DNA from: Gammaproteobacteria bacterium
GTDB lineage: Bacteria > Pseudomonadota > Gammaproteobacteria > Steroidobacterales > Steroidobacteraceae
Direction: 5' to 3'
Assembly: GCA_031414335.1 (NCBI GenBank)
Contig: JANNVI010000044.1
Span: forward strand, 1,218-65,217
Length of the DNA: 64,000 bases
Positions 1-64,000 of this stretch are shown piece after piece. The translations under genes and the position numbers were made by a program. Below the pieces are notes generated by a model that saw only the letters and a list, made by a program, of their open reading frames with translations, was not told the origin of the DNA and ran no database searches. Every line of letters starts with the position of its first letter. Position 1 is the first letter of the stretch.

Positions 1-770
1 GTCAGCAACACCTGCGGCTCGGGCAATATTGCCACGCTGTCGCCATCCAGGAATCCTAACAAGCGTTCGCGATCGGCGACCGTCAGCCGGGTGTTGCTAT
101 CGACCAGGGCGCGGGCTTTCTCGAGCGCGGTGCTGTCACCGCCCTCCTGGAACTTGCGCCGCAACTGGCGATAGAGCGTGGCGTTCTTGCCGCCCAGACC
201 CTTGATGGCTTTTTCGACCTTGGTCTCGAAATCCGGTTCGCGTCCGTACAGGTGATTGAAGCGCCGCGCGATCTCGCGCGTGATCTCCACATGCGCTATC
301 TGGTCTTCGCCGACCGGCACACCGTAGGCGCGATACAACAGGATGTCGGCCGACTGCAGCAAGGGGTAACCGAGGAAGCCGTAGGTCGCGAGGTCTTTTT
401 CCTTGAGCGCTTCCTGCTGATCCTTGTAGCTCGGCACACGCTCGAGCCAGCCGAGCGGCGTGATCATGGACAGCAACAGGTGCAGTTCCGCGTGCTCCGG
501 CACGTGCGACTGGACGAACAGCGTTGCGACGCCCGGATCGATGCCCGCTGCCAGCCAGTCGATGACCATCTCATGCGTCTGCTCAGGCAGCGCACTGGTG
601 TCATCGTATCCCGTTGTCAGGGCGTGCCAGTCGGCAACGAAAAAGAAGCACTGGTACTGGTATTGCAGCTCCAGCCAGTTCTTCAGTGCGCCGTGATAAT
701 TGCCGAGGTGAAGTTGCCCGGTCGGACGCATGCCGGAAAGCACGCGTTTAGCTTGCGGTGTGGCGCTCAT
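1..770 (-). CDS. trpS: tryptophan--tRNA ligase (5' part only; 3' end lies beyond the window start)
   Basis: Reverse-strand reading from ATG at 768-770 gives MSATPQAKRVLSGMRPTGQLHLGNYHGALKNWLELQY..., the N-terminal HIGH-type region of TrpRS. The ORF runs off the left edge, so it is missing from the ORF track. The + ORF 252..788 is its antisense shadow. Confidence 0.85.
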   Translation of the reverse strand, partial: MSATPQAKRVLSGMRPTGQLHLGNYHGALKNWLELQYQYQCFFFVADWHALTTGYDDTSALPEQTHEMVIDWLAAGIDPGVATLFVQSHVPEHAELHLLLSMITPLGWLERVPSYKDQQEALKEKDLATYGFLGYPLLQSADILLYRAYGVPVGEDQIAHVEITREIARRFNHLYGREPDFETKVEKAIKGLGGKNATLYRQLRRKFQEGGDSTALEKARALVDSNTRLTVADRERLLGFLDGDSVAILPEPQVLL

Positions 771-815
771 GTTGTCGGGGAATTATAGCGAAGCGGCGGC
801 CTTGCCCCCGGATAA

Positions 816-1439
816 CTACAAGCCCAGTCGATCGAGCGGCCCTTTGCCGGCCCGCGTAATGACGGCTGGCGCAGCAATAAGATCGACAACGGTGGTTGGC
901 TCGATGCCGCAGTGGCCGCCGTCCAGGATGATATCGACCTGGTTCTCGAGGCGCCCCATCGCCTCCACGCCGTCGGTGACCGGCAGATGATCGCCCGGCA
1001 ACAGCAGCGTCGAGCTCATCAACGGTTCGCCCAGAGCCTCAAGCAGCATCTGCGGCACCGGATGATCCGGCACCCGGATACCGATGGTGCGGCGCTTTTC
1101 GTGCTGCAGGCGGCGCGGCGTCTCGCGAGTGGCTGGCAAGAGGAAGGTGTAAGGACCGGGCGTGCAGGATTTCAGGATGCGAAATTGCCAGGTATCGACC
1201 CGCGCGTACTTGGCGATTTCCGTGAGGTCGCGGCACACCAGCGTGAAGTGATGGTGGCGGTCGGTATGGCGTATGCGCCGGATGCGCTCCAACGCGTCCT
1301 TGTCGCCGATATGACAACCTAACGCATAACAACTGTCGGTCGGATAGACGATCAGGCCTCCGGCACGCACGGCTTCGGCCGCCTTCAGGACCAGGCGGCG
1401 CTCCGGATTCTTCGCGTGCAATAGATAATAGTCTGTCAA
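816..1439 (-). CDS. yciO: YrdC/Sua5-domain protein, YciO-like (threonylcarbamoyl-AMP synthase family)
   Basis: 207-aa ORF colinear with E. coli YciO (GGLIVYPTDSCYALGC, RRTIGIRVPDHPV, LLEALGEPLMSSTL, PTTVVDL). Confidence 0.8.
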   Translation of the reverse strand: MTDYYLLHAKNPERRLVLKAAEAVRAGGLIVYPTDSCYALGCHIGDKDALERIRRIRHTDRHHHFTLVCRDLTEIAKYARVDTWQFRILKSCTPGPYTFLLPATRETPRRLQHEKRRTIGIRVPDHPVPQMLLEALGEPLMSSTLLLPGDHLPVTDGVEAMGRLENQVDIILDGGHCGIEPTTVVDLIAAPAVITRAGKGPLDRLGL

Positions 1440-1496
1440 GGGATGGTCCCTGCGGCTGGTCGGCTATCATACCTGCTGCACTCGGAAAGCCTTGTC

Positions 1497-2057
1497 ATGC
1501 AAAGTCTGCTCACGCTCGCCCCACTCGCAATATTCCTGGTCGCCTACCAGGTGGCCGGTATTTATGCCGCCACCGGCGCACTGATGATTGCGATGCTCGC
1601 TGTGGTCGCGATCGACTGGCTGCGCACGCGCCATGTTCCGGCGGTGCACGGCTTCAGCCTGTTGTTAGTACTGATTTTCGGCGGCCTCACCCTGTGGCTG
1701 CGCGACGTGCATTTCATCCAGTGGAAGCCGACCATCCTGTTTGGAGCGTTAGGTCTGGCGCACCTGCTGTCGGAATTCATCGGCAGGCGCGTGCTGGCCG
1801 AGCGCCTGATGTCGGAAATGGTGCCGGAATTCAAGGCCATCGAGGCGCGCAACTGGCGCACCGCCAATCGGGCACTGGGCCTCTATTACTGGCTCATGGC
1901 AGGCGCCAACTGGTGGGTGGCAAACCATATGTCGGAAGCCGTCTGGGTCAGGTTCAAGACCATTGGCCTGACGCTGCTGATCATGCTGTTTTTTGTATGC
2001 CTGAGCTACTGGCTCATGCGCCGACCGGAGCTGCGCGATGAGCAACCCGCCGCCTGA
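1497..2057 (+). CDS. yciB: intracellular septation protein A (YciB/IspZ)
   Basis: Frame of ORF 1443..2057, with the start moved to ATG 1497 (MQSLLTLAPLAIFLVAYQVAGIYAAT...). Multi-pass membrane protein colinear with E. coli YciB (FGGLTLWL, IQWKPT). Confidence 0.85.
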   Translation: MQSLLTLAPLAIFLVAYQVAGIYAATGALMIAMLAVVAIDWLRTRHVPAVHGFSLLLVLIFGGLTLWLRDVHFIQWKPTILFGALGLAHLLSEFIGRRVLAERLMSEMVPEFKAIEARNWRTANRALGLYYWLMAGANWWVANHMSEAVWVRFKTIGLTLLIMLFFVCLSYWLMRRPELRDEQPAA

Positions 2058-2355: not shown

Positions 2356-3174
2356 ATGAAAACCCGTTTATTGCTCCCCCTCGCCGCGCTTGCCCTGGTG
2401 GCAGCCTGCAAACAGAAGCCCGCCGAGGCGCCCGCCGCCGCACCAGCAGCGCCCGTCGCCACGGTCAACGGCAAGGCGCTCAGCGCCGACATGCTGGAGA
2501 CTTACGTCAAGGCTGCAGCCGGCCGCAGTCTGTCTGAACTGGCGCCTGAGCAGCGTGCGGAAGCTGTCGATGCGCTGGTGCGCATGCAACTGCTGGCGGA
2601 CGAAGCCGACAAGCAGGGCGTAACCAAGGACAAGAACACGCTCGCGATGCTGGAGCTGTCGCGCCTGGAAGTGCTGCAGCGGACCGTGACCGCCAATTAC
2701 CTGAAGGGCAAAGAGCCGACTGAACAGGAAATGCGGGCGGAATACGATGCGCAGATGGCCGCTGCGCCACGCACCGAATTTCATGTGCGCCATATCCTGG
2801 TGCAGTCCGAAGAACTGGCGAACAAACTGGTTGCGCGCCTGCAGAAAGGCGAGAGTTTCGAGAAGCTGGCGGCCACGGAGTCCGCGGATGCGCAGTCCAA
2901 GCCCCGCGGCGGCGATCTTGGCTGGGTGTCGCCGGGCAGCGCGCTGCCGCCGCCTTTCATCCAGGCTTTGTTAGGCCTGAAGAAAGGCGCGTTCACGACG
3001 ACCCCGGTGCGCACCCAGTTCGGTTTTCATATTCTGAAAGTCGACGAAACCCGCGAAGCGACGCTGCCGACTTTTGACCAGGTCAAGGAACGCCTGGTGC
3101 AGATCGTGCTGAGCAAGAAGGTCAAGGCCTACACGGATGAATTGCTGAAGACCGCCAAGGTCGAACGCAAGTAA
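2356..3174 (+). CDS. peptidylprolyl isomerase, parvulin/PpiC type, lipoprotein
   Basis: Lipobox signal (LLLPLAALALVAAC) followed by a C-terminal rotamase domain (FHVRHILV, GGDLGWV, FGFHILKV). Confidence 0.8.
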   Translation: MKTRLLLPLAALALVAACKQKPAEAPAAAPAAPVATVNGKALSADMLETYVKAAAGRSLSELAPEQRAEAVDALVRMQLLADEADKQGVTKDKNTLAMLELSRLEVLQRTVTANYLKGKEPTEQEMRAEYDAQMAAAPRTEFHVRHILVQSEELANKLVARLQKGESFEKLAATESADAQSKPRGGDLGWVSPGSALPPPFIQALLGLKKGAFTTTPVRTQFGFHILKVDETREATLPTFDQVKERLVQIVLSKKVKAYTDELLKTAKVERK

Positions 3175-3177
3175 TCA

Positions 3178-6030
<2,853 letters not shown>

Positions 6031-6062: not shown

Positions 6063-9000
6063 TGGCCGCCATCCGCAGTGCTTCGTCGATGTCGACCGAA
6101 ACCAGGCGCGAAACACCAGGTTCGCTCATCGTCACGCCTATCAACTGGGACGCCAGCTCCATGGTGGCCTTGTTGTGGGTAATGAAGATGAACTGCACGC
6201 GTTGCGCCATTTCGCGCACGATTTCGCAGAAGCGGCCGACGTTGTGTTCATCGAGCGGGGCGTCGACCTCATCAAGCAGGCAGAACGGCGCGGGATTCAA
6301 TTCGAAAATCGCAAACACCAGCGCGACCGCGGTCAGCGCCTTTTCGCCGCCCGACAATTGCGAGATCGTGACATTGCGCTTGCCGGGCGGTCTGGCCATG
6401 ACGGCGACGCCGGCGTTCAACGGGTCGTCGCCGACCAGCTCAAGATAGGCATGTCCGCCACCAAACAGGCGTGGAAATTTTTCCTTGAGGCCGGTGTTGA
6501 TGCGCTCGAAGGTCTCTTCGAACCGCACCCGAGTTTCCTTGTCGATCCGGCGCATCGCCTGCTCGAGCGTATCGAGCGCCGAGGTCAGATCCGCGTATTG
6601 GCTGTCGAGGTACTCCTTGCGCTGCGTGTTGTCACGCAGTTCATCGATGGCGGCAAGGTTGACCTGACCCAGCTTTTCAATGTCCTGGCGGCGATCCGCC
6701 AGTGCCTTGTCCCAGTCGATGGTGTTAGCTGATTCCGCAAGACCCGCGAGCACCTCCGCCAGCGTGAAATTAGTCGCCGCAAACTGCTCGGCGATTGACT
6801 CGCGCCGGACCCGGGTCTCCTGCGCGGTCATCCGCGCGGTCTCCAGACCGATGCGCGCATCCCCTACACGCTGCTCGCCGCTCAGGCGCTGCTCGTCCAG
6901 CCGCCGCATTTCGGCGTCCGCTTCTTCCTGGGCGCGCCGCGCCGCCGCGAACTCCGCTTCGACGTCGAGCCGCTGAGCTAACAATCCCTGCAATGCGCCT
7001 TCCAGGTCGACGATCGGCGCATCGCCGCCGGCCAGCTCTGATTCGAGCCCAAGGACGCGCACATCGAGCTGCTGGCGCTGCTCCGCCATGCGGCCGAGCC
7101 CGAGACCCAATGAGGTTTCAGCTGAGCGGCGCCCTTCGCTGCGGATCATCAGATCGCGCAGCACCAGCTGCGTCTGCTCGGCGCTGGCGCGGCAGCGCTG
7201 CAGATCGTCCCGGCGGGTCTCGCGTTCGGCGATCAACTCGGGCTGGCGCCGGTCGAGCTCACCGAGGGCCGCCAAGCCGCTTTCGAGCTCACCATGTGCG
7301 CGCGTCAGGGCCGCCTGGGTTTCATCACGCTCGCGCAGGACCTCGGCGCTTTCGTTTTCCAGCCGCTGCCGGCGATGCACAGTCTCCTGCGACCGTGCGC
7401 GCGATGCTTCCAGTTGTCCGAGCAGCTCGCTGTGCTCGCGATGCGAGCTCTGAATCTGTTCCTGCGTGGCGTCGCGCTGCCGTTCCGCCGCCAGAAGCGT
7501 TTGCCGCACATCGACCAGCGTCTGCTCGATAACGGCAACCTGGCCGTCACAGTCATGGCACTGCGCGCGCAGATCCTTGAGCCGATGTTCACGCTCGAGC
7601 ACGCCTTCATGGCCGCCGGCGCCGCGATTGACACGCAGCCAGTTGCGCCCCAGCCACTCACCACGCGCCGTAACCAGCGACTCGTCTGCGGCCAGCCGAC
7701 TGCGTTGCGCCAGGGCCTCCGCCAGCGAGCCGGCGGTGCGTACACGGCCTAACAAATCAAGCACCGCCGCAGGTCCACGGGCACGTTCGGCGAGACTGCC
7801 GGCCTTCGCGCCAGCGCCACCACCGGAGGTGTCCAGCAGCGCGAGGCGGCCGTCGCCCAGGCCCGCCAGGGCTTCCTGCAGGCTGTCGAAACCATCGACG
7901 CACACGGCTTCCAGGTAATCGCCCAGCACGGTCTCCACCGCGCGCTCCCAGCCGGCGTCGACGCTGAGGTTCTCGGCGAGTCGCGCCTTCTTCGCCAGGC
8001 CGTGGGTCGCCAGCCAGCCGGCGGCATTGCCCTCGGCACGGCGCAGCGCCGCCTGCTGCAAAGCCTCGACCGACAGCATTTCGGCGCGCGCCTTTTCGCG
8101 GCGCAGACGCGCCGACTCAAGCTCGGTTTCCAGCCGCAGTTGCCTGGCGCGCGTCGACTGGACGTCGCCTAACGCCGCGGTGAGCGTGGTGGTCAGGCCT
8201 TCGCTGGCACGACGCGCTTCGGACTCGCGCGATGCCAGGTCACCTAACAATGCATTGGCTTCCTGGGTTGCGAGCGCGTCACGCTCGAGCGACAGCCGGT
8301 CGGCCTGCGCCTGCAGGCGCCGGATCTGATTCTCCAGTTGCTCGATGCGGGCGCGCTCGACCTGCACCGTCTGCCGTGCTCCACCGAGCTCGGCGTTAAA
8401 CTCCTCCCAGGAGTGCTGCGCCTGTTGCAGGCCCGCCTCGGCAGCTAACAATGCAGTGCGCGCCGCCTGGTCGGCCGCACCCGACTGCGCCAGGCCGGGC
8501 GCCAGCGTCTCGAGTTCGTTGCGGATGGTGACCAGGTCGGATTCGTCGCGCGCGACGTGACTGGCCAGTTCGCCGATCGAGGTGCGCAGCTGCGCCAGTT
8601 CCGCGCGCTGGCGTTCGCGCATCTCGCGGGTGTGCTGAATCTGCTGCTCGTGGCGCGATACTTCGGCGCCCAGGGAGTAATAACGGCCCTGCACCTGGCT
8701 GACGCGTTCGCTGGTTTCGACCTGAAACTGCCGCTGGGTTTCCAGCGCCGCTTCGCTGGCGCGCAATTCGGCCAGTGCCGCCTGCAGCGCGATATCGCAC
8801 TCACGCACCGCTGAATCCTGCACTTCGCTGCCACTGTCGAGTTCGCGCAGCCGCAGAGCTAACAATTCCGCATGCAGCTTGCGTTCTTCATCCTTGAGAG
8901 TCTGGTAGCGGCGTGCGGTGGCCGCCTGGCGCTGCAGATGACGGATCTGCTTGTCGACCTCGTCACGCACGTCCTGCAGGCGTTCCAGGTTTTCGCGCGT

Positions 9001-10929: not shown

Positions 10930-11810
10930 ATGTCGGCCGCTTTGCGCCGACTCCCAGCGGTCCACTGCACCTGGGCTCGCTGGTCGCCGCACTCGCCAGC
11001 TATCTCGATGCGCGCGCCGCAGGCGGCCGCTGGCTGCTGCGAATCGATGACCTCGACCAGCCGCGGGTGCGACCCGGCTGCGATGCACTGATCATCCGCC
11101 AGCTAACGAACCTCGGACTGGCGTGGGATGGCGAAATCCGGTATCAGTCCCCTCATCTGCCCGAGTATCAGCAGGCCCTGGGTCAGCTGCAGAAGCACTG
11201 CGTGGTTTTCGCCTGCGATTGCTCGCGCCGCACGCTGCGCGCCGCCGCCGCTGCCGACCCCGCGGATGACGCCGAGCAAGCTTGCGTGGGTCGCTGTCGT
11301 GAACGGCGGGTGACGCAGCCTGCGGCGCTGCGCCTCGACCTCAGAGACTTCCATTCGGATTGGGTCGACCGCTGGCAGGGCCCTATCGCGGCCGGCCTGA
11401 GCGATTGCATTGTCCAACGGCGGGACGGCCTCTTCGCCTATCACCTCACCGTCGTGGTGGATGATCTGGCGAGCGGGATCAGCGACGTGGTTCGCGGCGC
11501 GGACCTGCTGGGCAGCACGGGCGCCCAGCGAGGCATTCACCAGGGATTGGGCGCCCGGATGCCGCGCTATGCGCACACGCCCGTGATAACCGAGGCGGAC
11601 GGCTGCAAACTCGCCAAGACCCGGCGCAGCCTGGCGGTGGGCGAGCCTTTGCTGGCCCGGCGCGAGCTGGTTGCCGCGCTCAGGCTGCTGCAGCAGGATG
11701 CGCCGGTCGACTTGGAACGATTCCAGACAAGTACTATTCTTGAGCATGCCATCTGTCACTGGTCCCCGGCGAAATTTGCCGGCATCCGCTCGGTCGCCGC
11801 AGCACGCTAA
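10930..11810 (+). CDS. gluQ: glutamyl-Q tRNA(Asp) synthetase, with an apparent 1-nt frameshift directly after the start codon
   Basis: The conserved N-terminus YVGRFAPTPSGPLHLGSLVAALASYLDARA... is read from 10929 in the frame of ORF 11067..11810, but that frame has no ATG/GTG/TTG upstream of 11067. ATG 10930 is one base out of frame. Confidence 0.7.
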
Positions 11811-11854
11811 CAAATCTGCTTGGGGTTTTGCCCCGGCTGTACTATCGTAGCGCC

Positions 11855-12328
11855 ATGGCTGAGCCGCGGGTGATCAAGAAATACCCGAATCGACGGTTGT
11901 ATGACACCGCCGAGAGCCGCTATATCACGCTCGCCGATATCCGCAAACTGGTGGTCGACCGCGTCGAATTCGTGGTGCTGGACAAGACCACGCAGGATGA
12001 CATAACGCGCAGCATCCTCCTGCAGGTGATCTCGGAACAGGAACATGCGTCGGAACCGGTGATGAGCCGCGACTTTCTGTCGCAGATTATTCGTTCCTAT
12101 GGCGGCAACATGCAGAGCGTCGTCGGCAGCTACCTGGAACAGAGCCTGAAGCTGTTCGATGCGCAGCAGCGCGAGATCCGCGACAAGGTGCGTGGCGTCG
12201 TTGGCGTCGATCCGGTTGACGCGGTCACGCAGATCGCACAGAAGAATTACCAGCGCTGGCGCGCGGTTCAGGACGATATCTTCCGCACGCTGTTAGGCGG
12301 CGGCAAGGACAAGGATCACGACAAGTAG
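11855..12328 (+). CDS. phaR: polyhydroxyalkanoate synthesis repressor PhaR
   Basis: Start at ATG 11855 (MAEPRVIKKYPNRRLYDTAESRYITLADIRKLV...), the PhaR N-terminal DNA-binding signature. Confidence 0.85.
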   Translation: MAEPRVIKKYPNRRLYDTAESRYITLADIRKLVVDRVEFVVLDKTTQDDITRSILLQVISEQEHASEPVMSRDFLSQIIRSYGGNMQSVVGSYLEQSLKLFDAQQREIRDKVRGVVGVDPVDAVTQIAQKNYQRWRAVQDDIFRTLLGGGKDKDHDK

Positions 12329-14465: not shown

Positions 14466-14508
14466 GTTAGGAATCCTTAAAGTTTTGGAAGCTGAAATAA
14501 ACGAAAGA

Positions 14509-14540: not shown

Positions 14541-14558
14541 ACTTTACTTTGCGTCGTG

Positions 14559-14828
14559 TTAGCGACGCAGACCCAGACGCTCGACAACGTCCTGATACTT
14601 TTCCGGCTTGGTAGCCTTCAGGTAGTCAAGAAGTTTGCGGCGCTGATTAACGAGTTTCACAAGACCGCGACGCGAAGCATGATCGCTTTTGTGGGCCGTG
14701 AAGTGGCCACCGAGGCCGTTGATGCGCTCCGACAAGAGTGCGATTTGCACTTCGGGCGAACCCGTGTCGTTAGGTGCGCGCTGAAATTGGGAGACCGATC
14801 CGGTCTTCTTTTCCGCGGACAATGTCAT
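14559..14828 (-). CDS. rpsO: 30S ribosomal protein S15
   Basis: 89 aa, ...[51 protein letters not shown]...RLGLRR. Confidence 0.97.
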
Positions 14829-25702: not shown

Positions 25703-25894
25703 GGGTTTCTCCTTGTGCGGGATTCGCACTAACAAACTACCGGTCGCCAAATTAGGCTGGGTTCAGTCCTTTTACTATTCGGAGTTATGCGTTCCGGGCG
25801 GCGAAGTCTACGTATGCGCTGCGCTCGAATTTACAGAGCAATCAGGCTACGCTGCCTGCCTGGCCGCATGGCCACCTAGCGGAGGGTTTGCGCC

Positions 25895-51321: not shown

Positions 51322-51794
51322 CTATTCGTAGCGGACTTTGACGACTTCAAAGCTGCGCACGCCACCAGGCGCGGTTACGGCCACTTCATCGCCAACGCTC
51401 TTGCCGATCAGTGCGCGGGCGATCGGCGAGGTGATCGCGATGCGGCCGGCCTTGATATCCGCCTCGTCCTCGCCAACCAGCCGGTAAACGACCTTGGTCC
51501 CGTCGTCGAGATTCTCGATCTCGACCGTGGCGCCGAAAATCACCTTGCCGGTGTTAGGTATCGCGGTGACGTCAATGATCTCGCAATTGCCGAGCTTGGA
51601 TTCGATGTCGCCGATGCGGCCTTCGATGAACCCCTGCTGCTCGCGCGCGGCATGGTATTCGGCATTTTCAGACAGATCGCCATGGCTGCGCGCCTCGGCA
51701 ATCGCCTTGATGACCGCCGGCCGTGACTCGCTCTTGAGCTTCTTCAGCTCGGCGCGCAATTGCTCGGCGCCGCGCAGGGTCATTGGACTTCGCT

Positions 51795-51798: not shown

Positions 51799-55031
<3,233 letters not shown>

Positions 55032-55032: not shown

Positions 55033-56211
55033 CTAACGCCCAGCGCCCGTGTTGAGCTTCTTCAACTGGTTCGCAAGACGGCGCACCATCAGCTGGGTAA
55101 AGCTCTCAAACAACGCCTTGAGATCATGGGGCCCGGGGCTGGCCTCGGGATGCCCCTGGAAACTGAAGGCCGGCTTGTCGGTGCGCCGAATGCCCTGCAG
55201 CGTGCCGTCGAACAGCGAACGGTGCGTCGGCTTCAGGTTGGCTGGCAGGCTGCTTTCATCGACTGCGAAACCGTGATTCTGCGAGGTAATCAGCACCCGC
55301 CCGGTTTCCAGGTCCTGCACCGGGTGATTGGCGCCATGATGACCGAACTTCATCTTGACGGTCTTTGCACCGCTCGCCAGAGCTAACAATTGGTGGCCGA
55401 GGCAGATGCCGAACATTGGCAGATTGGTCGCAACAAGATCGCGAATTGCATTGATCGCGTAGTCGCAGGGCTCCGGGTCGCCCGGACCGTTGCTGAGAAA
55501 TATGCCATCGGGCTGCAGCGCAATCACCTCGGCGGCCGTGGTCTTGGCAGGCACAACCGTCATTCGCCCGCCCTGGTCAGCTAACAGGCGCAGGATGTTG
55601 CGCTTGATGCCAAAATCGTAGGCCACGACGTGCATGCGCTGATGCGCCCGGATCGGCGGACGCGATGGGGCATCGAAAGTGGAGCCGTCGTTCCACTGGT
55701 AGCTGCGCGGTGTGGTGACAATCTGCGCGAGGTCCATGCCCTTGAGGCCCGCAAAGGCGCGCGCCGCCCGTACCGCCGCATCGATATCGATGCTGGCGCC
55801 GGCCGCGATGCAGCCCGCCTGCGCGCCCTGTTCCCGCAACATGCGGGTCAGCTTGCGCGTGTCGATGCCAGCAATCGCGACCGTGCGGCAACGCTGCAGA
55901 AAACCCGGCAGCGTTTCCGACATGCGCCAGTTGCTGGCCTGCAACGGCAGGTCGCGAATGATCAAGCCCGCGGCAAAGATTTCCGACGCCTCCATGTCCT
56001 CGGCGTTAGCACCGGTGTTGCCGATGTGCGGGTAGGTCAGCGTGACCAACTGTCTTGAGTAGGAGGGGTCGGTGAGAATTTCCTGGTAGCCGGTCATCGC
56101 GGTGTTGAATACCACTTCGCCGACGCTTTGCCCGATGGCGCCAATTGATTGGCCGCGAAAAACCGTGCCGTCAGCTAACGCCAGCACCGCAGGTACACTC
56201 ACGCGCTTCAT
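55033..56211 (-). CDS. carA: carbamoyl-phosphate synthase small subunit
   Basis: Start moved to ATG 56211 ([20 protein letters not shown]). Glutaminase triad region [31 protein letters not shown]. Confidence 0.96.
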
Positions 56212-56479: not shown

Positions 56480-57277
56480 TTATAAACCAAGTACTTCGCG
56501 CATGGTGTAACGGCCCGCAGGCCGTCCAGCCAGCCAGGCAGCCGCCCGGAGTGCCCCGCGGGCGAATATGGCCCGGTCGGTCGCCTGGTGGCGCAGCACC
56601 ACCCGCTCACCCGCGCCGGCAAATATGACGTCGTGATCGCCGACGATGTCGCCGCCGCGGACCACGGAAAATCCGATTTCATCATCCTTGCGCAGCGCAA
56701 TCCCCTCGCGGGAACGTCCGCGTACGGTCTCGAAATCCTGCTCGCGGCCGCGTGCCGCCGCACGGCCGAGCGCCAGCGCCGTGCCCGAAGGCGCGTCCTG
56801 CTTGTGGCGGTGGTGCGCTTCGATGATCTCGATATCGTATCCGGGCAGACTCCGTGCGGCCTGCTGCACCAGTTCCACCAGCAAACTGACACCGACCGAG
56901 GTGTTCGCGGTCTGCAGCACTGCGATCGAGCGCGCCGCCCTGGCAAGCTCGGCCTCGAAACCGGCGGGCTGGCCGGTCGTGCCGATGACACAGGCGACGC
57001 CGGCTGCAACACAATCGGCCAGCAGTTCGCTGCTGGCGTGCGCCGCAGAAAAGTCGACGGCGATGTCGGCCTCGCGCAGTGCCGCCGCGCGATCAGCCCG
57101 GACCATAATCTTGTTAGGCGCAAGGCCGGCCAGCTGGCCGGAATCGGCGCCGATGACCTCGCTGCCAGCCTGATCGATGGCGACCGCAAGAGTCAGCGCA
57201 GGAAACCCGGCAAGACTGGCCACCAGCGACCGGCCCATGCGCCCTCCGGCGCCCATGATTGCGAGGCGATGTCCCAT
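56480..57277 (-). CDS. dapB: 4-hydroxy-tetrahydrodipicolinate reductase
   Basis: 265 aa (AIMGAGGRMG, IEIIEAHHRHKQDAPSGTA). Confidence 0.95.
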   Translation of the reverse strand: MGHRLAIMGAGGRMGRSLVASLAGFPALTLAVAIDQAGSEVIGADSGQLAGLAPNKIMVRADRAAALREADIAVDFSAAHASSELLADCVAAGVACVIGTTGQPAGFEAELARAARSIAVLQTANTSVGVSLLVELVQQAARSLPGYDIEIIEAHHRHKQDAPSGTALALGRAAARGREQDFETVRGRSREGIALRKDDEIGFSVVRGGDIVGDHDVIFAGAGERVVLRHQATDRAIFARGALRAAAWLAGRPAGRYTMREVLGL

Positions 57278-57309
57278 GCGGCCCTGCTCCGGAGCGAATG
57301 TTAGGTCAG

Positions 57310-58475: not shown

Positions 58476-60440
58476 CTATGAAGCGCGCTGGTCCTTATCC
58501 TTGTCTTTCACTTCCTCGAACTCGGCGTCGACGACATTGTCGTCGCGCTTCTTGCCACTGCCCGAGTCGCCGCCGTCGCTGCCCTGACCGCCACCCGCGC
58601 CGTCGGCGCCAGCCGCGCCCGCGCTTGCCTGGTAGGCCTGCTGCACAATCGCGGCCGAGGCCTGCATCAGCGCTTCGAGCTTCTTCTGGATCTTGTCCTT
58701 GTCGTCATCTTTCGCGACCGACTTCAATTCGCCTAACGCGGACTCGACCTTGGCGCGATCTTCACCGGAAACTTTTTCGCCAAGATCGGCCAGTGATTTC
58801 CCAACCTGATGGATGGCGGCATCGGCCTGGTTGCGCGTCTCAGTCAGCTCACGGAATTGGCGGTCTTCCTCGGCATGCGCCTCGGCATCACGCACCATGC
58901 GCTTGATCTCTTCCTCATTGAGGCCGGAGTTCGCCTTGATGATGATTTTCTGTTCCTTGCCCGTCGCCTTGTCCTTGGCGGACACATTCAGGATGCCGTT
59001 CGCGTCGATATCGAAGGTGACTTCGATCTGCGGCGCGCCGCGCGGCGCCGGCGGAATGTCCGTCAGATCGAACTTGCCGAGCGACTTGTTGTCCTGCGCG
59101 CGCTGGCGCTCGCCCTGCAGCACGTGCACGGTGACCGCGGTCTGGCTGTCGGCCGCGGTGGAGTAGGTCTTGGTCGCCTTGGTCGGGATCGTGGTGTTCT
59201 TCTCGATCACCTTGTCAACGATGCTGCCGAGCGTCTCGATTCCCAGCGACAGCGGCGTGACATCTAACAACAGCACGTCCTTGACGTCGCCCGCGAGCAC
59301 GCCACCCTGGATCGCGGCGCCCACGGCTACCGCCTCATCCGGATTGACGTCCTTGCGCGGCTCCTTGCCGAAGAAGTCCTTGACGTATTTCTGCACCAGC
59401 GGCATGCGCGTCTGGCCGCCGACCAGGATCACTTCCGAGATGTCGTTGTTAGTGACGCCCGCATCCTTGAGCGCGACGCGGCAGGGTTCGATGGTCCGGC
59501 GCACCAGGTCATCGACCAGCGATTCGAGCTTGGCGCGCGTCAGCTTGAGCGCGAGATGCTTCGGTCCGGACGCGTCCATGGTGACGTACGGCAGGTTGAT
59601 ATCGGTCTGCTGCGACGAAGACAGCTCGACCTTCGCTTTCTCGGCAGCTTCCTTCAGGCGTTGCATCGCGAGCGGATCCTTGCGCACATCGACGCCGGAC
59701 TCCTTGAGGAATTCTTCCGCGATGAAATGGATGATCTTGAGGTCGAAGTCCTCGCCGCCGAGGAAAGTGTCGCCGTTGGTCGAGAGCACCTCGAACTGGC
59801 GCTCGCCATCAACGTTGGCAATCTCGATGACCGACACGTCAAAGGTACCGCCACCCAGGTCGTAGACCGCAATCTTGCGATCGCCGCCGGCCTTGTCCAG
59901 GCCGTAAGCTAACGCGGCCGCCGTGGGCTCATTGATGATGCGGCGCACGTTGAGGCCCGCGATGCGTCCGGCGTCCTTGGTCGCCTGGCGCTGCGAGTCG
60001 TTGAAATACGCAGGCACAGTGATGACGGCCTCGGTGACCGGTTCGCCGAGAAAATCCTCGGCGGTCTTTTTCATCTTCATCAGCACGCGCGCGGAAATTT
60101 CTGGCGGCGCCATTTTCTTGCCGGAGACGTCGACCCAGGCATCGCCATTGTCGGCCTTGACGATCTTGTAAGGCACCATGTCGATGTCTTTCTGCACGAT
60201 CTGCTCTTCGAAGCGGCGACCGATCAGGCGCTTGACCGCGTACAGCGTGTTATGCGGATTGGTGACCGCCTGGCGCTTGGCAGACTGGCCGACGATGACT
60301 TCGTCGTCCTTGGTAAAGGCGACGATCGAGGGCGTGGTGCGATCACCTTCGCTGTTTTCGATGACGCGCGGCTTCCCGCCCTCCATGATGGCGACGCAGG
60401 AATTGGTCGTGCCGAGGTCAATACCGATAATTTTTGCCAT
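58476..60440 (-). CDS. dnaK: molecular chaperone DnaK (Hsp70)
   Basis: 654 aa ([38 protein letters not shown]). Confidence 0.98.
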
Positions 60441-60523: not shown

Positions 60524-61102
60524 TCAGCTTTTTGGGTCCGCCGGCGCCTTGGCCACGATCACCCGCGCCGGCCGCAACAGGCGTCCGTTCAAGGTATAGC
60601 CCCGCTGCACGACCGCGAGCACCGAGTTCGGCTCGGCGGTGGTCGATTCCTGCGCCATGATGGCTTCGTGCTGGTGTGCATCGAAGGGCTGGCCGACCGG
60701 ATGCAGCTCGGTAACGCCGGCCTTCTCCAACGCCTTTGTTAGCAGGCGCAGGGTCGCCTGCTGGCCATCCCGGAGCGCAGCGGCATCGGCCTTGTCGGCG
60801 TTTTCAACACCCAGGTCCAGGCCGTCCTTGACCGGCAAGATCTCGCCAAGAAATTTCTCCAGGCCATAACGCTGGGCCGCTTCGATATCGCGCAGCGCGC
60901 GCTTGCGGATGTTGTCCTGTTCGGCGACCGCCCGCAGATACTCGCTCCAGTGATTCCTGGCGCGCTCGTCGGACTCGGCCAGCTTGACGCGCAACTGCTC
61001 CAGTTCCACCAGCGCCGCAGCCGATTCCGGCATCACCGCGGTCGCCTCGGGATTCGCTTCAGTTGCTGGAGGTGGTGCGCTGGATGCGAAATCAGCCATC
61101 AA
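60524..61102 (-). CDS. grpE: nucleotide exchange factor GrpE
   Basis: 192 aa (RAVAEQDNIRKRALRDIEAAQRYGLEKF, GYTLNGRLLRPARV). Confidence 0.95.
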   Translation of the reverse strand: MMADFASSAPPPATEANPEATAVMPESAAALVELEQLRVKLAESDERARNHWSEYLRAVAEQDNIRKRALRDIEAAQRYGLEKFLGEILPVKDGLDLGVENADKADAAALRDGQQATLRLLTKALEKAGVTELHPVGQPFDAHQHEAIMAQESTTAEPNSVLAVVQRGYTLNGRLLRPARVIVAKAPADPKS

Positions 61103-61188
61103 ATAAATCTCCGGAATTCAACATGTTACAGAGGTCTTCTAACGTAAATTAGCGCGAACTCGCCGACGCGCTGGCCGGCATATGGAGG

Positions 61189-62265
61189 CTAACGGCGGGA
61201 ATTCAAGGCGGCGCTGAGTAATTTCGCCGTGATATCGACGATCGGGATTACGCGCTCATAGGCCATCCGCGTGGGGCCGATCACGCCCAGCACGCCCATG
61301 ACATTCTGATCGAGCGAGTACGGCGCCGCGATCACACTGACCTCATTTGGGATGTGATAGCCGGACTCCTGGCCGATGAAGATCTGCACGCCGTCCGCCT
61401 TCAGCGATCCATCCAGCAGCGTCAGGAAATCGCGCCGCTCGTTGAAGGCTTCGAAAAGACGTTTCAATTTGTCGACGCTGGCCAGGTCCGCGACGCCCAT
61501 CAGGTTGGTTTCGCCGGCAATTACATATTCCAATTTCTCATCCGGCAGGGGCGCGATGGCAGCCTCGGCCACCTGCACCGCATCCAGCATGATCTGGTTC
61601 ATGGTCTCGCGGGCTTCCTGCATTTGCCGCAGGATTTCCTGGCGGGCCTCGTGCACAGTGCGGCCGCGCAGCAATTCACTCAGATAGGAGGAAGCACGCC
61701 GTAGCTCCTCGGTGGAATGATAGCGATCCATCTGTAGAATGCGGTTCTGGACTTCGCGATCGCCTAACACCAGCACCACCAACACGCGGTTGTCAGACAA
61801 GCTGACAAACTCGACATGGGTAATCGCGGCCTGTGCCGAGCGCGGCAAGGTGACCACGCCTGCGAGCTGAGTCACGTTGGACAACATTTGCGAGGCCGCG
61901 GCGACCAGGGCCTTGTCGTCAACCACCAGGCGTGCATTTTCAAATTGACGGATCAGCTCGCCACTGTCCTGCTGGTTGAGCCCCTGGCCATGCAGCAAGG
62001 TGTCGACAAAGAACCGGTAGCCTTTATTGGTGGGTACGCGACCCGCCGAGGTATGCGGCGAGCTGATGAAACCAAGCTCTTCGAGGTCGGCCATCACGTT
62101 GCGTACCGTGGCTGAGCTCAGCGTAAGACCCGAATCCCGGGTCAGGCTGCGCGAACCGACCGGCTGCCCGTCGCGGATATAGCTGCCCACCAGCGTTCGC
62201 AGCAGGCGCTGCGCGCGTTCATTAAATACATCCTCGAATTTGTCGTGGCTCATGCTCGGCGCCAC
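61189..62265 (-). CDS. hrcA: heat-inducible transcription repressor HrcA
   Basis: 358 aa (ERAQRLLRTLVGSYIRDGQPVGSRSL, GVLGVIGPTRMAYERVIPIVD). An alternative start lies at ATG 62253. Confidence 0.92.
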   Translation of the reverse strand: MAPSMSHDKFEDVFNERAQRLLRTLVGSYIRDGQPVGSRSLTRDSGLTLSSATVRNVMADLEELGFISSPHTSAGRVPTNKGYRFFVDTLLHGQGLNQQDSGELIRQFENARLVVDDKALVAAASQMLSNVTQLAGVVTLPRSAQAAITHVEFVSLSDNRVLVVLVLGDREVQNRILQMDRYHSTEELRRASSYLSELLRGRTVHEARQEILRQMQEARETMNQIMLDAVQVAEAAIAPLPDEKLEYVIAGETNLMGVADLASVDKLKRLFEAFNERRDFLTLLDGSLKADGVQIFIGQESGYHIPNEVSVIAAPYSLDQNVMGVLGVIGPTRMAYERVIPIVDITAKLLSAALNSRR

Positions 62266-62377
62266 GCTACCGACTGCCGCCGTCCAGCGTCAAGTGATCC
62301 TGCAACACATATCGATGCGGGCATGGCTCTTTGTCGGCTGGGTTTTGCCAGCGCGGCATGCTACAAGGTGAGGCCCT

Positions 62378-63280
62378 ATGAGCATACGTACCTGCGCCCT
62401 GATCGCGCGTTACGCCGACGCCCGCATCGCCGAAAGCAGCGCCCAGCTCGCGGCGCATTTGCGGGCGCGCGGCGTGGCCGTGCTGGTTCCCGACGACGAT
62501 TCGGTGCTGGCGGCGTCCGGCGACGTGCGGCCCGTCAACGAGGCGGAACTGGTGCGTCAGGCCGATCTGGTCATCGCCATTGGCGGCGACGGCACCCTGC
62601 TGTACGCGGCCGGCCTGGTCGCCACCCGCGGGACGCCGCTGCTGGGCGTCAATCGTGGTCGCCTGGGATTTCTTACCGATATCAGCCCGGACGACATGCT
62701 GGCGTCCGTCGATGCTGCGATCGACGGCCGCTGCGTCGTGGACCGCCGAGCCTTGTTAGCTGCCGGAATTGTTGCCAGCGCGACCGGCGCCTCCTCGCGC
62801 GCGGCAGCGCGCGGGCTGGCACTGAACGATGTCGTACTCGAGGGCGCGCAGCCGGGCCGGCTGCTGGATTTTTCAACCACCATCGATGGCCGCTATGTAA
62901 ATAGTCACGGTGGCGACGGCCTGGTCATCGCGACGGCCACAGGCTCGACCGCCTACGCGCTGTCCTGCGGTGGGCCCATTCTGGAGCCCGGCCTTGATGC
63001 GCTGGTAGTCGCGCCGATCTGCCCGCACACATTGTCGGACCGGCCCATCGTCGTGTCCGGACGCTCGGTTATCGAGGTGGCCTTGGTCGACCGGCCCGAC
63101 TGCCATGGCCTGGTTGCCTGCGATGGCCGGCCCCTGGGCGAGCTCATGCCCGGGGATAAACTCATCGTGCGACCGTCACCTGACAAGATTACCTTGCTGC
63201 ACCCGACTGGCTACGATTACTTCCGCCTGCTGCGCTCCAAGCTCAACTGGGGCCGGCGCAACTTCGACCCTGCCCGTTAG
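62378..63280 (+). CDS. nadK: NAD(+) kinase
   Basis: 300 aa (IAIGGDGTLL, GVNRGRLGFLTD, ATATGSTAYALSCGGPI). Confidence 0.94.
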   Translation: MSIRTCALIARYADARIAESSAQLAAHLRARGVAVLVPDDDSVLAASGDVRPVNEAELVRQADLVIAIGGDGTLLYAAGLVATRGTPLLGVNRGRLGFLTDISPDDMLASVDAAIDGRCVVDRRALLAAGIVASATGASSRAAARGLALNDVVLEGAQPGRLLDFSTTIDGRYVNSHGGDGLVIATATGSTAYALSCGGPILEPGLDALVVAPICPHTLSDRPIVVSGRSVIEVALVDRPDCHGLVACDGRPLGELMPGDKLIVRPSPDKITLLHPTGYDYFRLLRSKLNWGRRNFDPAR

Positions 63281-63291
63281 GTTCGCGCACC

Positions 63292-64000
63292 ATGCTGACG
63301 CACCTGCAAATCCGCGATTTCGCCATCGTCGACACGCTGGAAGTGGATTTCACCGCCGGCCTCACGGTGCTGACCGGTGAAACCGGCGCGGGCAAGTCGA
63401 TCATCGTCGATGCACTGCAATGGCTCGCCGGTGGCAGGCTGGGCGCCGATGCGATCCGCCATGGCGCCGAACGCGCCGAGGTCAGCGCCGTGTTCGACCT
63501 GGCGGGCGCGCCCAAAGACCTCTGCGCCTTGCTCGACCAGCAGGCCATCGAACACAGCGGCGAACTCCTGATCCGCCGCGTGGTCAGCCAGGACGGCAAA
63601 TCGCGCGCGTTTCTCAACGGCCAGGCGGTCGCGGTGCAACAGCTGCGCGACATCGGCGGCTGGCTGATCGACATCCACGGCCAGCACGAATTCCAGGCGC
63701 TGTTGCGCGCCGGTGCGCAGCGCGCGTTGCTGGATGACTTCGCCGGGCTTGAAGCGCAGTCCGAAGCACTTGGCCGCGATACGCGTGCGTACACCGAGGC
63801 CGAAGCCGCCCTCAATGAACTGCAGCAGGCCGCGCGCGACCGCGATGCGCGCTTCGATCTGCTGCGTTACCAGTGCGGCGAACTCGCCGCCCTCCAGCTA
63901 ACAAGCGGCGAAGCCGCGAGCCTCATGGCAGAGGCGACTCGCCTGCGTCACAGCGGCCGGCTTGCAGAGGCCGCACGCTCCGCCTGCGACCTGCTCTACG
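63292..64000 (+). CDS. recN: DNA repair protein RecN (5' part; continues beyond the window end)
   Basis: ATG 63292 gives MLTHLQIRDFAIVDTLEVDFTAGLTVLTGETGAGKSIIVDAL... (Walker A). The open frame runs to the window edge, so it is absent from the ORF track. Confidence 0.9.
   Translation, partial: MLTHLQIRDFAIVDTLEVDFTAGLTVLTGETGAGKSIIVDALQWLAGGRLGADAIRHGAERAEVSAVFDLAGAPKDLCALLDQQAIEHSGELLIRRVVSQDGKSRAFLNGQAVAVQQLRDIGGWLIDIHGQHEFQALLRAGAQRALLDDFAGLEAQSEALGRDTRAYTEAEAALNELQQAARDRDARFDLLRYQCGELAALQLTSGEAASLMAEATRLRHSGRLAEAARSACDLLY

Follow-up and report, generated by a model that had tools for sequence, protein, structure and literature searches.

The uptake signal sequences (USS) of the Pasteurellaceae (AAGTGCGGT / ACAAGCGGT) and the DNA uptake sequences (DUS) of the Neisseriaceae (GCCGTCTGAA and its dialects) have been described through a common set of properties, namely hyper-abundance, even spacing, reading-frame bias, peptide changes, sharing and dialects (PMC2817400, PMC1939737, PMC7811141, PMC3630211). 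In cyanobacteria, the highly iterated palindrome HIP1 (GCGATCGC) has been argued to be conserved by selection rather than by neutral replenishment (PMC5861425); it is the target of two methyltransferases (PMC4390886), it has been reported to enhance natural transformation when methylated (bioRxiv 10.1101/2024.09.10.611283), and a role in DNA uptake has been proposed for it (bioRxiv 10.64898/2026.06.24.733823). Here, we report on a non-palindromic word, CTAACR (YGTTAG on the other strand), dispersed through a 64-kb stretch of bacterial DNA, contig JANNVI010000044.1, hereafter the window, which has a GC content of 63% and intact long open reading frames (ORFs). NuoG places the window among Steroidobacteraceae-like metagenome-assembled genomes (MAGs). 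We regard it as virtually certain that CTAACR is genuine and natural and that it is maintained at the level of the DNA. Our preferred reading, to which we give a probability of about 0.4, places it with USS, DUS and HIP1 as a word by which cells would recognise their own DNA, in connection with uptake or transformation.

By exact matching, CTAAC or its complement is found 118 times in the window (73 CTAAC and 45 GTTAG on the + strand), which is the total that a first-pass annotation had reached by eye. Its coordinates were exact for all 73 CTAAC and for 43 of the 45 GTTAG, the two others being off by one (57113 not 57112, 59448 not 59447). The words it had chosen for comparison are indeed rare, with 27 GTAAC/GTTAC, 11 TTAAC/GTTAA and 6 CTAAT/ATTAG, and TTAG does nearly always follow G, as 118 of the 133 CTAA in the window continue with C. 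The word extends beyond these five bases: the base 3′ of CTAAC is A in 81 cases, G in 36, T in one and C in none, which makes CTAACR of 117 of the 118 sites. The base 5′ of CTAAC is C in 50 cases, G in 50, T in 11 and A in 7 (G or C in 100/118); a purine stands at position -2 in 73% of the sites and an A at position +6 in 41%. The working consensus is R-S-CTAAC-R-(A).

Under an order-1 Markov model, CTAACA is observed 81 times for 6.9 expected (z=28) and CTAACAA 41 times for 1.5 expected. A stricter null, of the kind that the first-pass annotation had called for, consisted of 500 per-gene synonymous-codon shuffles in which each protein and each gene's codon usage were kept. The 118 CTAAC compare with 33.3±5.0 in the shuffles (maximum 49, z=17) and the 117 CTAACR with 22.0±3.9, an excess of 17-24 standard deviations (SD). 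This null is conservative because the shuffles retain the inflated TTA and GCT codon counts. As for USS and DUS, the word is hyper-abundant above both compositional and coding expectation. Its mean density is ~1.8 sites per kb, about one site per 540 bp; if extrapolated from these 64 kb, a genome of 4-5 Mb would hold ~7,000-9,000 sites.

Three other accounts of the word were tried and rejected. A planted motif introduced by word-for-word replacement does not fit, as no expected word is missing and CCAAC is only mildly depleted (74 vs 112±9 in the codon shuffles). A eukaryotic intron branch point (CTAAC) is dismissed by flanks without GT...AG, by bacterial codon periodicity and by the intact long ORFs. 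Finally, a second half-site or composite motif was rejected: the flanks show only a 3-nt periodicity, and although GCACGT is enriched downstream, its distance varies and the enrichment recurs in neither L024 nor L016. GCACGT lies within 5-60 nt 3′ of CTAAC 11 times for 1.8 expected, which is a quarter of the GCACGT of the window. The CTAAC concerned are at 1752(-), 4725, 7749, 14470(-), 27572, 31123, 31807, 33890, 43284, 59264 and 59909, with offsets that vary from 9 to 42 nt and are mostly multiples of 3. In the related loci introduced below, such neighbours number two each in L001 and L003 and none in L024 and L016; the association is marginal after multiple-testing correction.

The distribution of the sites relative to the reading frames was examined on gene models based on ORFs and on the GC content at third codon positions (GC3), with manual fixes; a few start codons are uncertain, which leaves the counts unaffected. 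At least one site is present in 48 of the 58 models. The 111 genic sites comprise 65 NYG-TTA-G (Leu), 29 xCT-AAC (Xaa-Asn), 10 CTA-ACR (Leu-Thr), 3 GTT-AGC and 4 CGT-TAG stops. The word does occur in all three frames, as first stated, but very unevenly. Synonymous opportunities are occupied at 28%, 14%, 8% and 2% across frames, a reading-frame bias with peptide enrichment of the USS/DUS type. Of the 76 TTA codons, 65 lie in YG-TTA-G and 11 elsewhere. The codon that precedes TTA-G always has a pyrimidine as second base, and it is TTG 26 times vs CTG 11 times, despite an overall usage of 245 TTG vs 1241 CTG. After TTA, GGN and GCN codons are far commoner than GAN and GTN, and their third base is enriched in T. 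The constraint therefore spans from the second base of the preceding codon to the third base of the following one.

Three further sites hold a TAA stop, and 7 of the 31 TAA/TAG stops lie within the word, which may influence stop-codon choice. Overall, the 56 stops of the window are 25 TGA, 16 TAA and 15 TAG; the TAA plus TAG share (31/56) is high for a 63% GC genome. The density in intergenic DNA (1.6 per kb) is equivalent to that in genes (1.8 per kb), and the five positions initially given as non-coding (14466, 25729, 29743, 57300, 61139) hold. With sites in several frames, on both strands, across stops and between genes, the constrained unit is a DNA word, neither a codon nor a peptide effect, in line with the initial proposal. 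An effect of codon usage or of TTA context was rejected on the basis of the codon shuffles, the sites in other frames and the non-coding DNA. Two tRNA genes were found in the window, tRNA-Met(CAT) at 30576-30652, upstream of nuoN, and tRNA-Leu(GAG) at 45267-45351, between secG and nuoA; tRNA-Leu(UAA), the TTA decoder, has no gene in the window. One further site may be non-coding. The listed nuoE ORF (41747-42412) overlaps the 3′ end of nuoD (42289-43542) by 124 nt and its Pfam domain begins at residue 74. The real start of nuoE probably lies further in, and CTAAC at 42284 would thus fall in the upstream ORF extension, outside nuoD, and be non-coding.

The sites are also more evenly spaced than expected by chance. 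Gaps average 546 bp and their coefficient of variation (CV) is 0.68 vs 0.99 for random placement; 5000 simulations never gave a value this small. When the same number of sites per class was drawn from the 850 synonymously possible positions, the draws had a CV of 1.00±0.10 vs 0.70 observed (p about 0.0002). No lower CV was found among 163 control 5-mers of similar count, bar the overlapping TAACA. Gaps of <200 bp and of >1 kb are both deficient. The spacing had been called irregular, which is correct in that there is no fixed period but overlooks this regularity, a property shared with USS and DUS. The orientations of neighbours are independent (45:27:27:18), and pairs in opposite orientation within 150 bp (3 vs 15.5 expected) are avoided as strongly as pairs in the same orientation. 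The only two close inverted pairs, 4725/4762 in ligA and 48077/48121 in folP, are 32-39 nt apart, intragenic and not at terminators. A single site, whichever way it points, seems to be enough for the surrounding few hundred bp. Taken together, orientation-independent avoidance and even spacing imply that the word works at the level of the DNA duplex and that each additional site brings less; neither an RNA or translation effect specific to one strand nor a mutational process that is purely local would produce such spacing.

We then turned to relatives, which were compared in a single orthologous region, using 80 loci from a NuoG-based scan with one genome per species. Three independent MAGs from different projects (L001, L002 and L003; NuoG 92-96% identical) carry 2.0-2.9 CTAAC per kb. 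A Logan contig (L081) that overlaps the right end of the window and encodes the exact NadK protein of the window holds 12 sites in 6.8 kb. At greater distance (NuoG about 66%), the density is 1.49 per kb in L024 and 1.13 per kb in L016, and it falls to 0.14-0.41 in their sister clade. Nearly all other family members have 0-0.1 CTAAC per kb, with most of the family within 0-0.3, and the density of the window is 10-20 times that of most relatives. Measured against the family-wide rate in the orthologous region, the window, L001 and L024 all have CTAAC as their strongest outlier (p 1e-15 to 1e-23); in L016 it comes second (p = 2e-9) after TGCCA. The flanks differ between lineages: the window clade uses RSCTAACR, whereas L024, L016 and their sister clade use CTAACAA, and the few CTAAC of the background lineages have no flank preference. 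Together with the same positions being occupied, described below, these densities exclude an artefact, a watermark or a family-wide codon habit.

No other convincing hyper-abundant word with a different core was found in the 80 relatives, most signals being compositional. In L016 (JADJBE010000003.1, 22 kb), TGGCAA/TTGCCA occurs 31 times vs 7.1 and TGCCA 89 times vs 34.6 at the family rate, which may represent a second lineage-specific word or a shift in codon usage. L055 has 28 TACCGA vs 6.3, and L064 30 CTCCTC vs 6.3. The public record of L079 (CAMCBU010000026.1), titled 'MAG: Klebsiella pneumoniae', is probably mislabelled, since its nuo region is Steroidobacteraceae/Nevskiaceae-like (NuoG 62%) and stands beside L055 in the tree.

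Conservation of individual sites was followed by aligning 37 window sites of the nuo-ftsH region codon by codon. Sites are kept at 23/24 positions in L003 (96%) and at 30/37 in L001 (81%), compared with 75% and 62%, respectively, for all other 5-mers; the identity at fourfold-degenerate positions is 85% (L003) and 77% (L001). TTA is kept at 21/25 sites. As reported for HIP1, the word is conserved beyond neutral expectation, and the comparison with relatives that the first-pass annotation had suggested reveals positional conservation instead of a by-product of codon bias. Only 6 of the 37 window-clade positions are common to L024 or L016, which implies that sites accumulated largely independently in the two groups. 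One position goes further: the Leu-Leu-Gly of NuoF at 41267-41271 is encoded by TTG-TTA-GGC in 15 genomes (the window and 14 loci) of three clades from which TTA is otherwise almost absent, and this synonymous site looks conserved over long evolutionary time.

The word has been installed by nucleotide substitution across the core and accessory genes of a single Steroidobacteraceae-like lineage. The changes are mostly silent and make use of rare codons (TTA; GCT, CCT, TCT or ACT before AAC; TTG before TTA), with some amino-acid and stop changes. Where the window has TTA at these sites, outgroups mostly have CTC, CTG or TTG, and where it has GCT they mostly have GCC or GCG, from which it follows that many sites needed two to three substitutions, transversions included. 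Even between the window and L001 (91% nucleotide identity), two-base differences occur within a single codon. At 15 of the 37 sites, the word coincides with amino-acid differences from the outgroup majority, towards Leu-Leu-Gly/Ala or Xaa-Asn, and 6 of the 37 encode residue combinations absent from all 24 outgroups. Examples are Pro-Lys to Pro-Asn in NuoG, Thr-Leu-Ser to Val-Leu-Gly in NuoK and Arg-Asp-Ala to Leu-Leu-Ala in FolP.

How could such a word spread? In a scenario of DNA uptake, a DNA-binding component of the uptake or transformation pathway would prefer fragments that carry the word, and this reader possibly recognises it in a methylated form. The word would then spread to saturation, each new site bringing less benefit, through biased uptake followed by homologous recombination (molecular drive), through selection for every fragment of a few hundred bp to hold one site or more, or through both. 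Such saturation would yield the even spacing, the frame bias dictated by coding cost, the peptide changes and the dialects between lineages. Among the three analogies put forward at first (uptake signal, Chi-like word and epigenetic target), the uptake signal fits best, on account of spacing, frame bias, amino-acid changes, positional conservation and dialects. It is conceivable, and we suggest it tentatively, that the Steroidobacteraceae word would represent a further independent origin of an uptake word, after the USS of Pasteurellaceae, the DUS of Neisseriaceae and the proposed HIP1 of cyanobacteria. Matching the word to a described motif had not succeeded before, and our literature searches likewise returned nothing relevant, whether on over-representation or methylation of CTAAC/GTTAG or on new gammaproteobacterial uptake sequences.

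Several observations speak against an uptake word. The USS core has 9 bp and the DUS 10-12 bp; the invariant core of CTAACR is shorter (5 bp) and AT-rich in a 63% GC genome, and with its ~4 degenerate positions we estimate its content at roughly 13 bits. The specificity of this core is sharp, as in an enzyme recognition site: one-off core variants show neither enrichment nor flank preference in the window, and none is clearly tolerated, the signal of CTATC with good flanks (17 vs about 7) being weak. In addition, the density of CTAACR is about twice that of USS/DUS. USS and DUS are relatively enriched outside coding sequence and DUS often form inverted pairs at terminators, whereas CTAACR does neither in the window. 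No DNA modification, restriction, pilus or competence gene was found by Pfam among the 58 gene models of the window. Finally, in contrast to the hosts of USS and DUS, the carrier is an uncultured environmental Steroidobacteraceae-like lineage.

The main rival to an uptake word is that a DNA methyltransferase (orphan, Type IIG or Type III-like) modifies CTAACR, probably to N6-methyladenine at one of the adenines, and that the methylated word is read by an intracellular process in need of dense and evenly distributed marks. Mismatch-repair strand discrimination, control of replication or segregation and nucleoid organisation are candidates, with about one site per 0.5 kb being selected. A sharp, six-base, non-palindromic core with a degenerate R that tolerates no one-off variants does resemble an enzyme site, and this proposal also accommodates the even spacing with its orientation-independent interference, the equal intergenic and genic densities and the conservation of single positions over long periods. 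Moreover, HIP1, the closest hyper-abundant analogue, is targeted by two methyltransferases (PMC4390886). On the other hand, no CTAACR/YGTTAG methylation motif was found in the literature searches and no methyltransferase gene was detected by Pfam in the 58 gene models. The enrichment of CTAACR is the opposite of the avoidance or neutrality usually seen in hosts for the targets of restriction-modification, BREX or Dnd systems. Apart from HIP1, now linked to transformation, we know of no methyltransferase target with a 10-20-fold enrichment over relatives. We consider this proposal unlikely, although it has to be taken seriously.

Alternatively, CTAACR could be the binding site of an abundant nucleoid-associated or chromosome-organising protein, involving neither methylation nor uptake, with selection for a regular coverage of the chromosome. 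Even spacing, irrelevance of orientation, action at the duplex level and conserved positions would all be expected, and an asymmetric footprint of ~9 bp would be compatible with a monomeric DNA-binding domain. However, this leaves unexplained the gradation of 0.1, 0.3, 1.5 and 2 sites per kb among close lineages, and no candidate protein was identified. The nucleoid proteins known to us read degenerate or structural features, and we know of none for which a genome was rewritten at the codon level. Such a role is in our view improbable.

Could the word be a neutral by-product of a local mutation or repair bias, such as very-short-patch repair with a cytosine methyltransferase, or a context-specific deaminase? 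The window does contain 26 CTAG vs 120-160 expected, and CCAG/CTGG is its most over-represented tetranucleotide (993 vs 541 under the order-1 model); this deficit and this excess form the classical signature attributed to very-short-patch repair. A C-to-T step could finish many sites (CCAAC to CTAAC, giving TTG to TTA or NCC to NCT), CCAAC is somewhat depleted as given above, and a strong bias would mimic positional conservation. However, outgroups mostly have CTC or CTG, from which a transversion and/or two to three steps are required, and the six sites with residue combinations lacking outgroup precedent required amino-acid changes as well; the sites are not explained by independent single T-to-C or C-to-T steps. 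CTAAT, CTAAA and CTAAG remain at the levels of relatives and are not specially drained. Above all, a local process cannot yield even spacing or avoidance in either orientation up to ~200-300 bp. We hold a by-product of this sort to be quite improbable. Other compositional features were noted in the window: the palindromic hexamers AAGCTT (1 vs about 7) and GTTAAC (1 vs 4.4) are depleted, and AGTACT is enriched (8 vs 2.4, with 14-16 per 22 kb in L013 and L016).

A Chi-like recombination hotspot or a replication-oriented polar word comparable to the FtsK-orienting polar sequences (KOPS), read by RecBCD/AddAB or FtsK, was the second analogy offered at first, and it is disfavoured. The word is over-represented in core genes, and Chi sequences are taxon-dependent and can be short. 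GC skew is negative over the whole window and the KOPS-like GGGNAGGG is found 4:0 on the - strand, which for these reasons we take as the leading strand. This strand carries more GTTAG than CTAAC (73:45, or 62%), far from the strong co-orientation of a Chi-type word, when compared with 89% for the E. coli-type Chi octamer GCTGGTGG and 100% for GGGNAGGG. In the sense strand of genes, GTTAG:CTAAC is 65:33 for - strand genes and 7:6 for + strand genes (7.7 kb, too few to tell gene strand from replication direction on a segment of one replichore). With reading-frame opportunities of 455 vs 221, gene strand and opportunities can explain the 73:45 split; in addition, neighbour orientation is random. 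Both polar roles seem to be filled already: GCTGGTGG occurs 17 times on the - strand (7.5±2.5 expected from codon shuffles) and twice on the + strand, and its 143:12 distribution in the 80 relatives is co-oriented with nuo. A canonical Chi/KOPS system thus seems to operate in this Steroidobacteraceae-like family, and a polar role for CTAACR is very improbable. As for the absence of any biological signal (an artefact, a deliberate watermark as once envisaged, or plain codon, codon-pair or tRNA usage), which the predominance of synonymous sites and of one rare codon, TTA, might have suggested, its probability is negligible given that four independent public assemblies from different studies (L001, L002, L003, L081) share the same sites, as the proposed check by independent sequencing demanded, that the excess over codon shuffles is 17-24 SD with sites in other frames, antisense, in stops and between genes, and that the constraint extends into the preceding and following codons.

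The gene content of the window was established by Pfam on all 58 gene models, of which four have no match. It includes trpS, ligA, zipA, smc and queF; pnp-rpsO-truB-rbfA-infB-nusA-rimP followed by a block of metabolic genes; nuoN to nuoA, secG, tpiA, glmM, folP, ftsH, greA, carB and carA; and dapB, dnaJ-dnaK-grpE, hrcA, nadK and recN. The accessory block at 21-30.5 kb has 2.0 sites per kb, and no prophage or insertion sequence (IS) element was found in the 64 kb. The longest stretch devoid of the word, 8864-11102 (2.2 kb), takes in the 5′ end of smc together with queF and a hypothetical gene without Pfam match. The lowest GC3 values of the window (0.69) are those of queF and of this hypothetical gene, as might be expected if this short stretch had been acquired more recently. 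All sites are listed in Table 1.

Table 1. The 118 exact CTAAC matches in window coordinates; the strand is the one that carries CTAAC.
Coordinates	Strand	Gene or location	Codon context	Remark
56..60	+	trpS	G-TTA-G (Leu)	
1319..1323	+	tsaC-like	G-TTA-G (Leu)	
1664..1668	-	ispZ	G-TTA-G (Leu)	
1748..1752	-	ispZ	G-TTA-G (Leu)	
2970..2974	-	PPIase	G-TTA-G (Leu)	
3591..3595	+	ligA	G-TTA-G (Leu)	
4725..4729	+	ligA	G-TTA-G (Leu)	inverted pair with 4762
4762..4766	-	ligA	xCT-AAC (Xaa-Asn)	
5381..5385	+	zipA	G-TTA-G (Leu)	
5819..5823	+	zipA	G-TTA-G (Leu)	
6724..6728	-	smc	xCT-AAC (Xaa-Asn)	
6978..6982	+	smc	G-TTA-G (Leu)	
7749..7753	+	smc	G-TTA-G (Leu)	
8169..8173	+	smc	G-TTA-G (Leu)	
8244..8248	+	smc	G-TTA-G (Leu)	
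8445..8449	+	smc	G-TTA-G (Leu)	
8859..8863	+	smc	G-TTA-G (Leu)	
11103..11107	+	gluQRS-like	CTA-ACR (Leu-Thr)	
11807..11811	+	gluQRS-like	TAA stop within motif	
12292..12296	-	phaR	G-TTA-G (Leu)	
13862..13866	+	pnp	G-TTA-G (Leu)	
14072..14076	+	pnp	G-TTA-G (Leu)	
14466..14470	-	intergenic		just upstream of pnp start
14558..14562	-	rpsO	TAA stop within motif	
14769..14773	-	rpsO	xCT-AAC (Xaa-Asn)	
15333..15337	+	truB	GTT-AGC (Val-Ser)	
16170..16174	+	rbfA	G-TTA-G (Leu)	
16364..16368	-	infB	xCT-AAC (Xaa-Asn)	
17012..17016	-	infB	xCT-AAC (Xaa-Asn)	
17695..17699	+	infB	G-TTA-G (Leu)	
18930..18934	+	nusA	G-TTA-G (Leu)	
19543..19547	-	nusA	xCT-AAC (Xaa-Asn)	
20314..20318	-	nusA	xCT-AAC (Xaa-Asn)	
20639..20643	+	rimP	G-TTA-G (Leu)	
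21304..21308	+	DUF1838 gene	CTA-ACR (Leu-Thr)	
21547..21551	+	DUF1838 gene	CTA-ACR (Leu-Thr)	
22013..22017	+	DUF1838 gene	xCT-AAC (Xaa-Asn)	
22360..22364	+	S9 peptidase	G-TTA-G (Leu)	
22859..22863	-	S9 peptidase	xCT-AAC (Xaa-Asn)	
23353..23357	+	S9 peptidase	G-TTA-G (Leu)	
23611..23615	+	S9 peptidase	G-TTA-G (Leu)	
23988..23992	+	S9 peptidase	GTT-AGC (Val-Ser)	
24135..24139	+	S9 peptidase	GTT-AGC (Val-Ser)	
25037..25041	+	fatty-acid hydroxylase	G-TTA-G (Leu)	
25729..25733	+	non-coding		upstream of probable ATG start (AAGGAG before ATG) of 25313-25700 gene
25999..26003	-	formamidase-like	G-TTA-G (Leu)	
26825..26829	+	formamidase-like	CTA-ACR (Leu-Thr)	
27572..27576	+	aminotransferase V	G-TTA-G (Leu)	
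27748..27752	-	aminotransferase V	CTA-ACR (Leu-Thr)	
28071..28075	-	aminotransferase V	xCT-AAC (Xaa-Asn)	
28220..28224	+	aminotransferase V	G-TTA-G (Leu)	
28810..28814	-	hypothetical gene	xCT-AAC (Xaa-Asn)	
29743..29747	-	intergenic		
30727..30731	-	nuoN	TAA stop within motif	sole CTAACT
31123..31127	+	nuoN	G-TTA-G (Leu)	
31540..31544	+	nuoN	G-TTA-G (Leu)	
31807..31811	+	nuoN	G-TTA-G (Leu)	
32350..32354	-	nuoM	xCT-AAC (Xaa-Asn)	
32751..32755	+	nuoM	G-TTA-G (Leu)	
33624..33628	+	nuoM	G-TTA-G (Leu)	
33890..33894	+	nuoL	G-TTA-G (Leu)	
35162..35166	+	nuoL	G-TTA-G (Leu)	
36004..36008	+	nuoK	G-TTA-G (Leu)	Val-Leu-Gly here, outgroups Thr-Leu-Ser
36642..36646	+	nuoJ start region	GTG-TTA-G	
36660..36664	+	nuoI	CGT-TAG (stop)	
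36975..36979	-	nuoI	xCT-AAC (Pro-Asn)	
37752..37756	+	nuoH	G-TTA-G (Leu)	
37948..37952	-	nuoH	GCT-AAC (Ala-Asn)	
38657..38661	+	nuoG	G-TTA-G (Leu)	
38858..38862	+	nuoG	G-TTA-G (Leu)	
38933..38937	+	nuoG	G-TTA-G (Leu)	
39363..39367	-	nuoG	TCT-AAC (Ser-Asn)	
40128..40132	-	nuoG	CCT-AAC (Pro-Asn)	outgroups Pro-Lys
40569..40573	-	nuoF	GCT-AAC (Ala-Asn)	
40937..40941	+	nuoF	CCG-TTA-G	
41267..41271	+	nuoF	TTG-TTA-GGC	position common to 15 genomes
41969..41973	-	nuoE	ACT-AAC (Thr-Asn)	window-specific C-to-T gain
42284..42288	-	nuoE ORF	ACT-AAC	
42430..42434	-	nuoD	GCT-AAC (Ala-Asn)	
43284..43288	+	nuoD	G-TTA-G (Leu)	
44155..44159	+	nuoC	G-TTA-G (Leu)	
45163..45167	-	nuoA	CTA-ACA (Leu-Thr)	
45735..45739	-	secG	CTA-ACA (Leu-Thr)	
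47008..47012	+	glmM	G-TTA-G (Leu)	
47348..47352	-	glmM	CCT-AAC (Pro-Asn)	
48077..48081	+	folP	G-TTA-G (Leu)	inverted pair with 48121
48121..48125	-	folP	CTA-ACA (Leu-Thr)	
48686..48690	+	folP	G-TTA-G (Leu)	outgroups Arg-Asp-Ala
48791..48795	+	folP	G-TTA-G (Leu)	
49404..49408	+	ftsH	G-TTA-G (Leu)	
49606..49610	-	ftsH	GCT-AAC (Ala-Asn)	
50307..50311	+	ftsH	G-TTA-G (Leu)	
51553..51557	-	greA	xCT-AAC (Xaa-Asn)	
51831..51835	-	carB	xCT-AAC (Xaa-Asn)	
52124..52128	+	carB	G-TTA-G (Leu)	
52565..52569	+	carB	G-TTA-G (Leu)	
52859..52863	+	carB	G-TTA-G (Leu)	
53310..53314	-	carB	xCT-AAC (Xaa-Asn)	
53715..53719	-	carB	xCT-AAC (Xaa-Asn)	
54707..54711	+	carB	G-TTA-G (Leu)	
55033..55037	+	carA	CGT-TAG (stop)	
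55383..55387	+	carA	G-TTA-G (Leu)	
55581..55585	+	carA	G-TTA-G (Leu)	
56005..56009	-	carA	xCT-AAC (Xaa-Asn)	
56175..56179	+	carA	G-TTA-G (Leu)	
57113..57117	-	dapB	xCT-AAC (Xaa-Asn)	
57300..57304	-	intergenic dnaJ-dapB		
58733..58737	+	dnaK	G-TTA-G (Leu)	
59264..59268	+	dnaK	TTG-TTA-GAT (Leu-Leu-Asp)	
59448..59452	-	dnaK	ACT-AAC (Thr-Asn)	
59909..59913	+	dnaK	G-TTA-G (Leu)	
60738..60742	-	grpE	CTA-ACA (Leu-Thr)	
61139..61143	+	intergenic grpE-hrcA		
61189..61193	+	hrcA	CGT-TAG (stop)	
61764..61768	+	hrcA	G-TTA-G (Leu)	
62755..62759	-	nadK	G-TTA-G (Leu)	
63276..63280	-	nadK	CGT-TAG (stop)	
63898..63902	+	recN	CTA-ACA (Leu-Thr)	

Words installed genome-wide against codon preference are rare, and USS, DUS, HIP1 and Chi each revealed a basic mechanism of DNA handling. 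The family described here is uncultured and widespread in soil, freshwater and wastewater, which suggests that self-recognition of DNA, or another chromosome-wide marking, is more widespread than models based on pathogens and cyanobacteria imply. If CTAACR is an uptake word, lineages would have been caught at ~0.1, 0.3, 1.5 and 2 sites per kb with two dialects, and this graded series would allow the birth and saturation of the signal, and its co-evolving receptor or methyltransferase, to be reconstructed from genomes. Whatever the reading, comparative genomics could exploit the graded densities and flanks to identify the responsible protein and to test molecular drive against selection. In practice, the word is a sharp marker for taxonomy and binning that flags native vs foreign DNA in carrier MAGs, and it distorts codon-usage and dN/dS analyses for the window clade.

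How does CTAACR compare with the described systems? With HIP1 it shares being a hyper-abundant short word found in genes and in all frames, with a lineage-dependent abundance (PMC5861425, PMC4390886), and a conservation between genomes beyond neutral expectation; the function of HIP1, too, long remained unknown. However, HIP1 is an 8-bp GC-rich palindrome that contains the methyltransferase targets GATC and CGATCG, whereas CTAACR is asymmetric and has no known methyltransferase; and the periodicity reported for HIP1 is of 10-90 kb, whereas the signal of CTAACR is a short-range regularity seen within 64 kb. Chi (GCTGGTGG and its taxon variants) and KOPS are likewise over-represented asymmetric words in core genes that mark the cell's own chromosome, but they are strongly co-oriented with replication, which CTAACR is not in the window, and the density of CTAACR is ~6 times that of the Chi-like word in the window. 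With USS and DUS, CTAACR has no sequence similarity. Nonetheless, the likeness extends to the thousands of copies implied per genome (~1.8 per kb here vs ~1 per kb), to a non-palindromic word used in both orientations, to a more-even-than-random spacing with a frame bias set by coding cost and locally reshaped peptides, and to sites common to related species, with dialects and differing densities between lineages. A last parallel is found in Campylobacter, where RAATTY, the short AT-rich target of CtsM, is a methylation-dependent self mark for uptake. RAATTY is palindromic, common by composition in an AT-rich genome and without reported installation against codon usage, whereas CTAACR is asymmetric. 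It does show one word serving both as methyltransferase target and as uptake signal, an arrangement that would merge an uptake role for CTAACR with its main rival.

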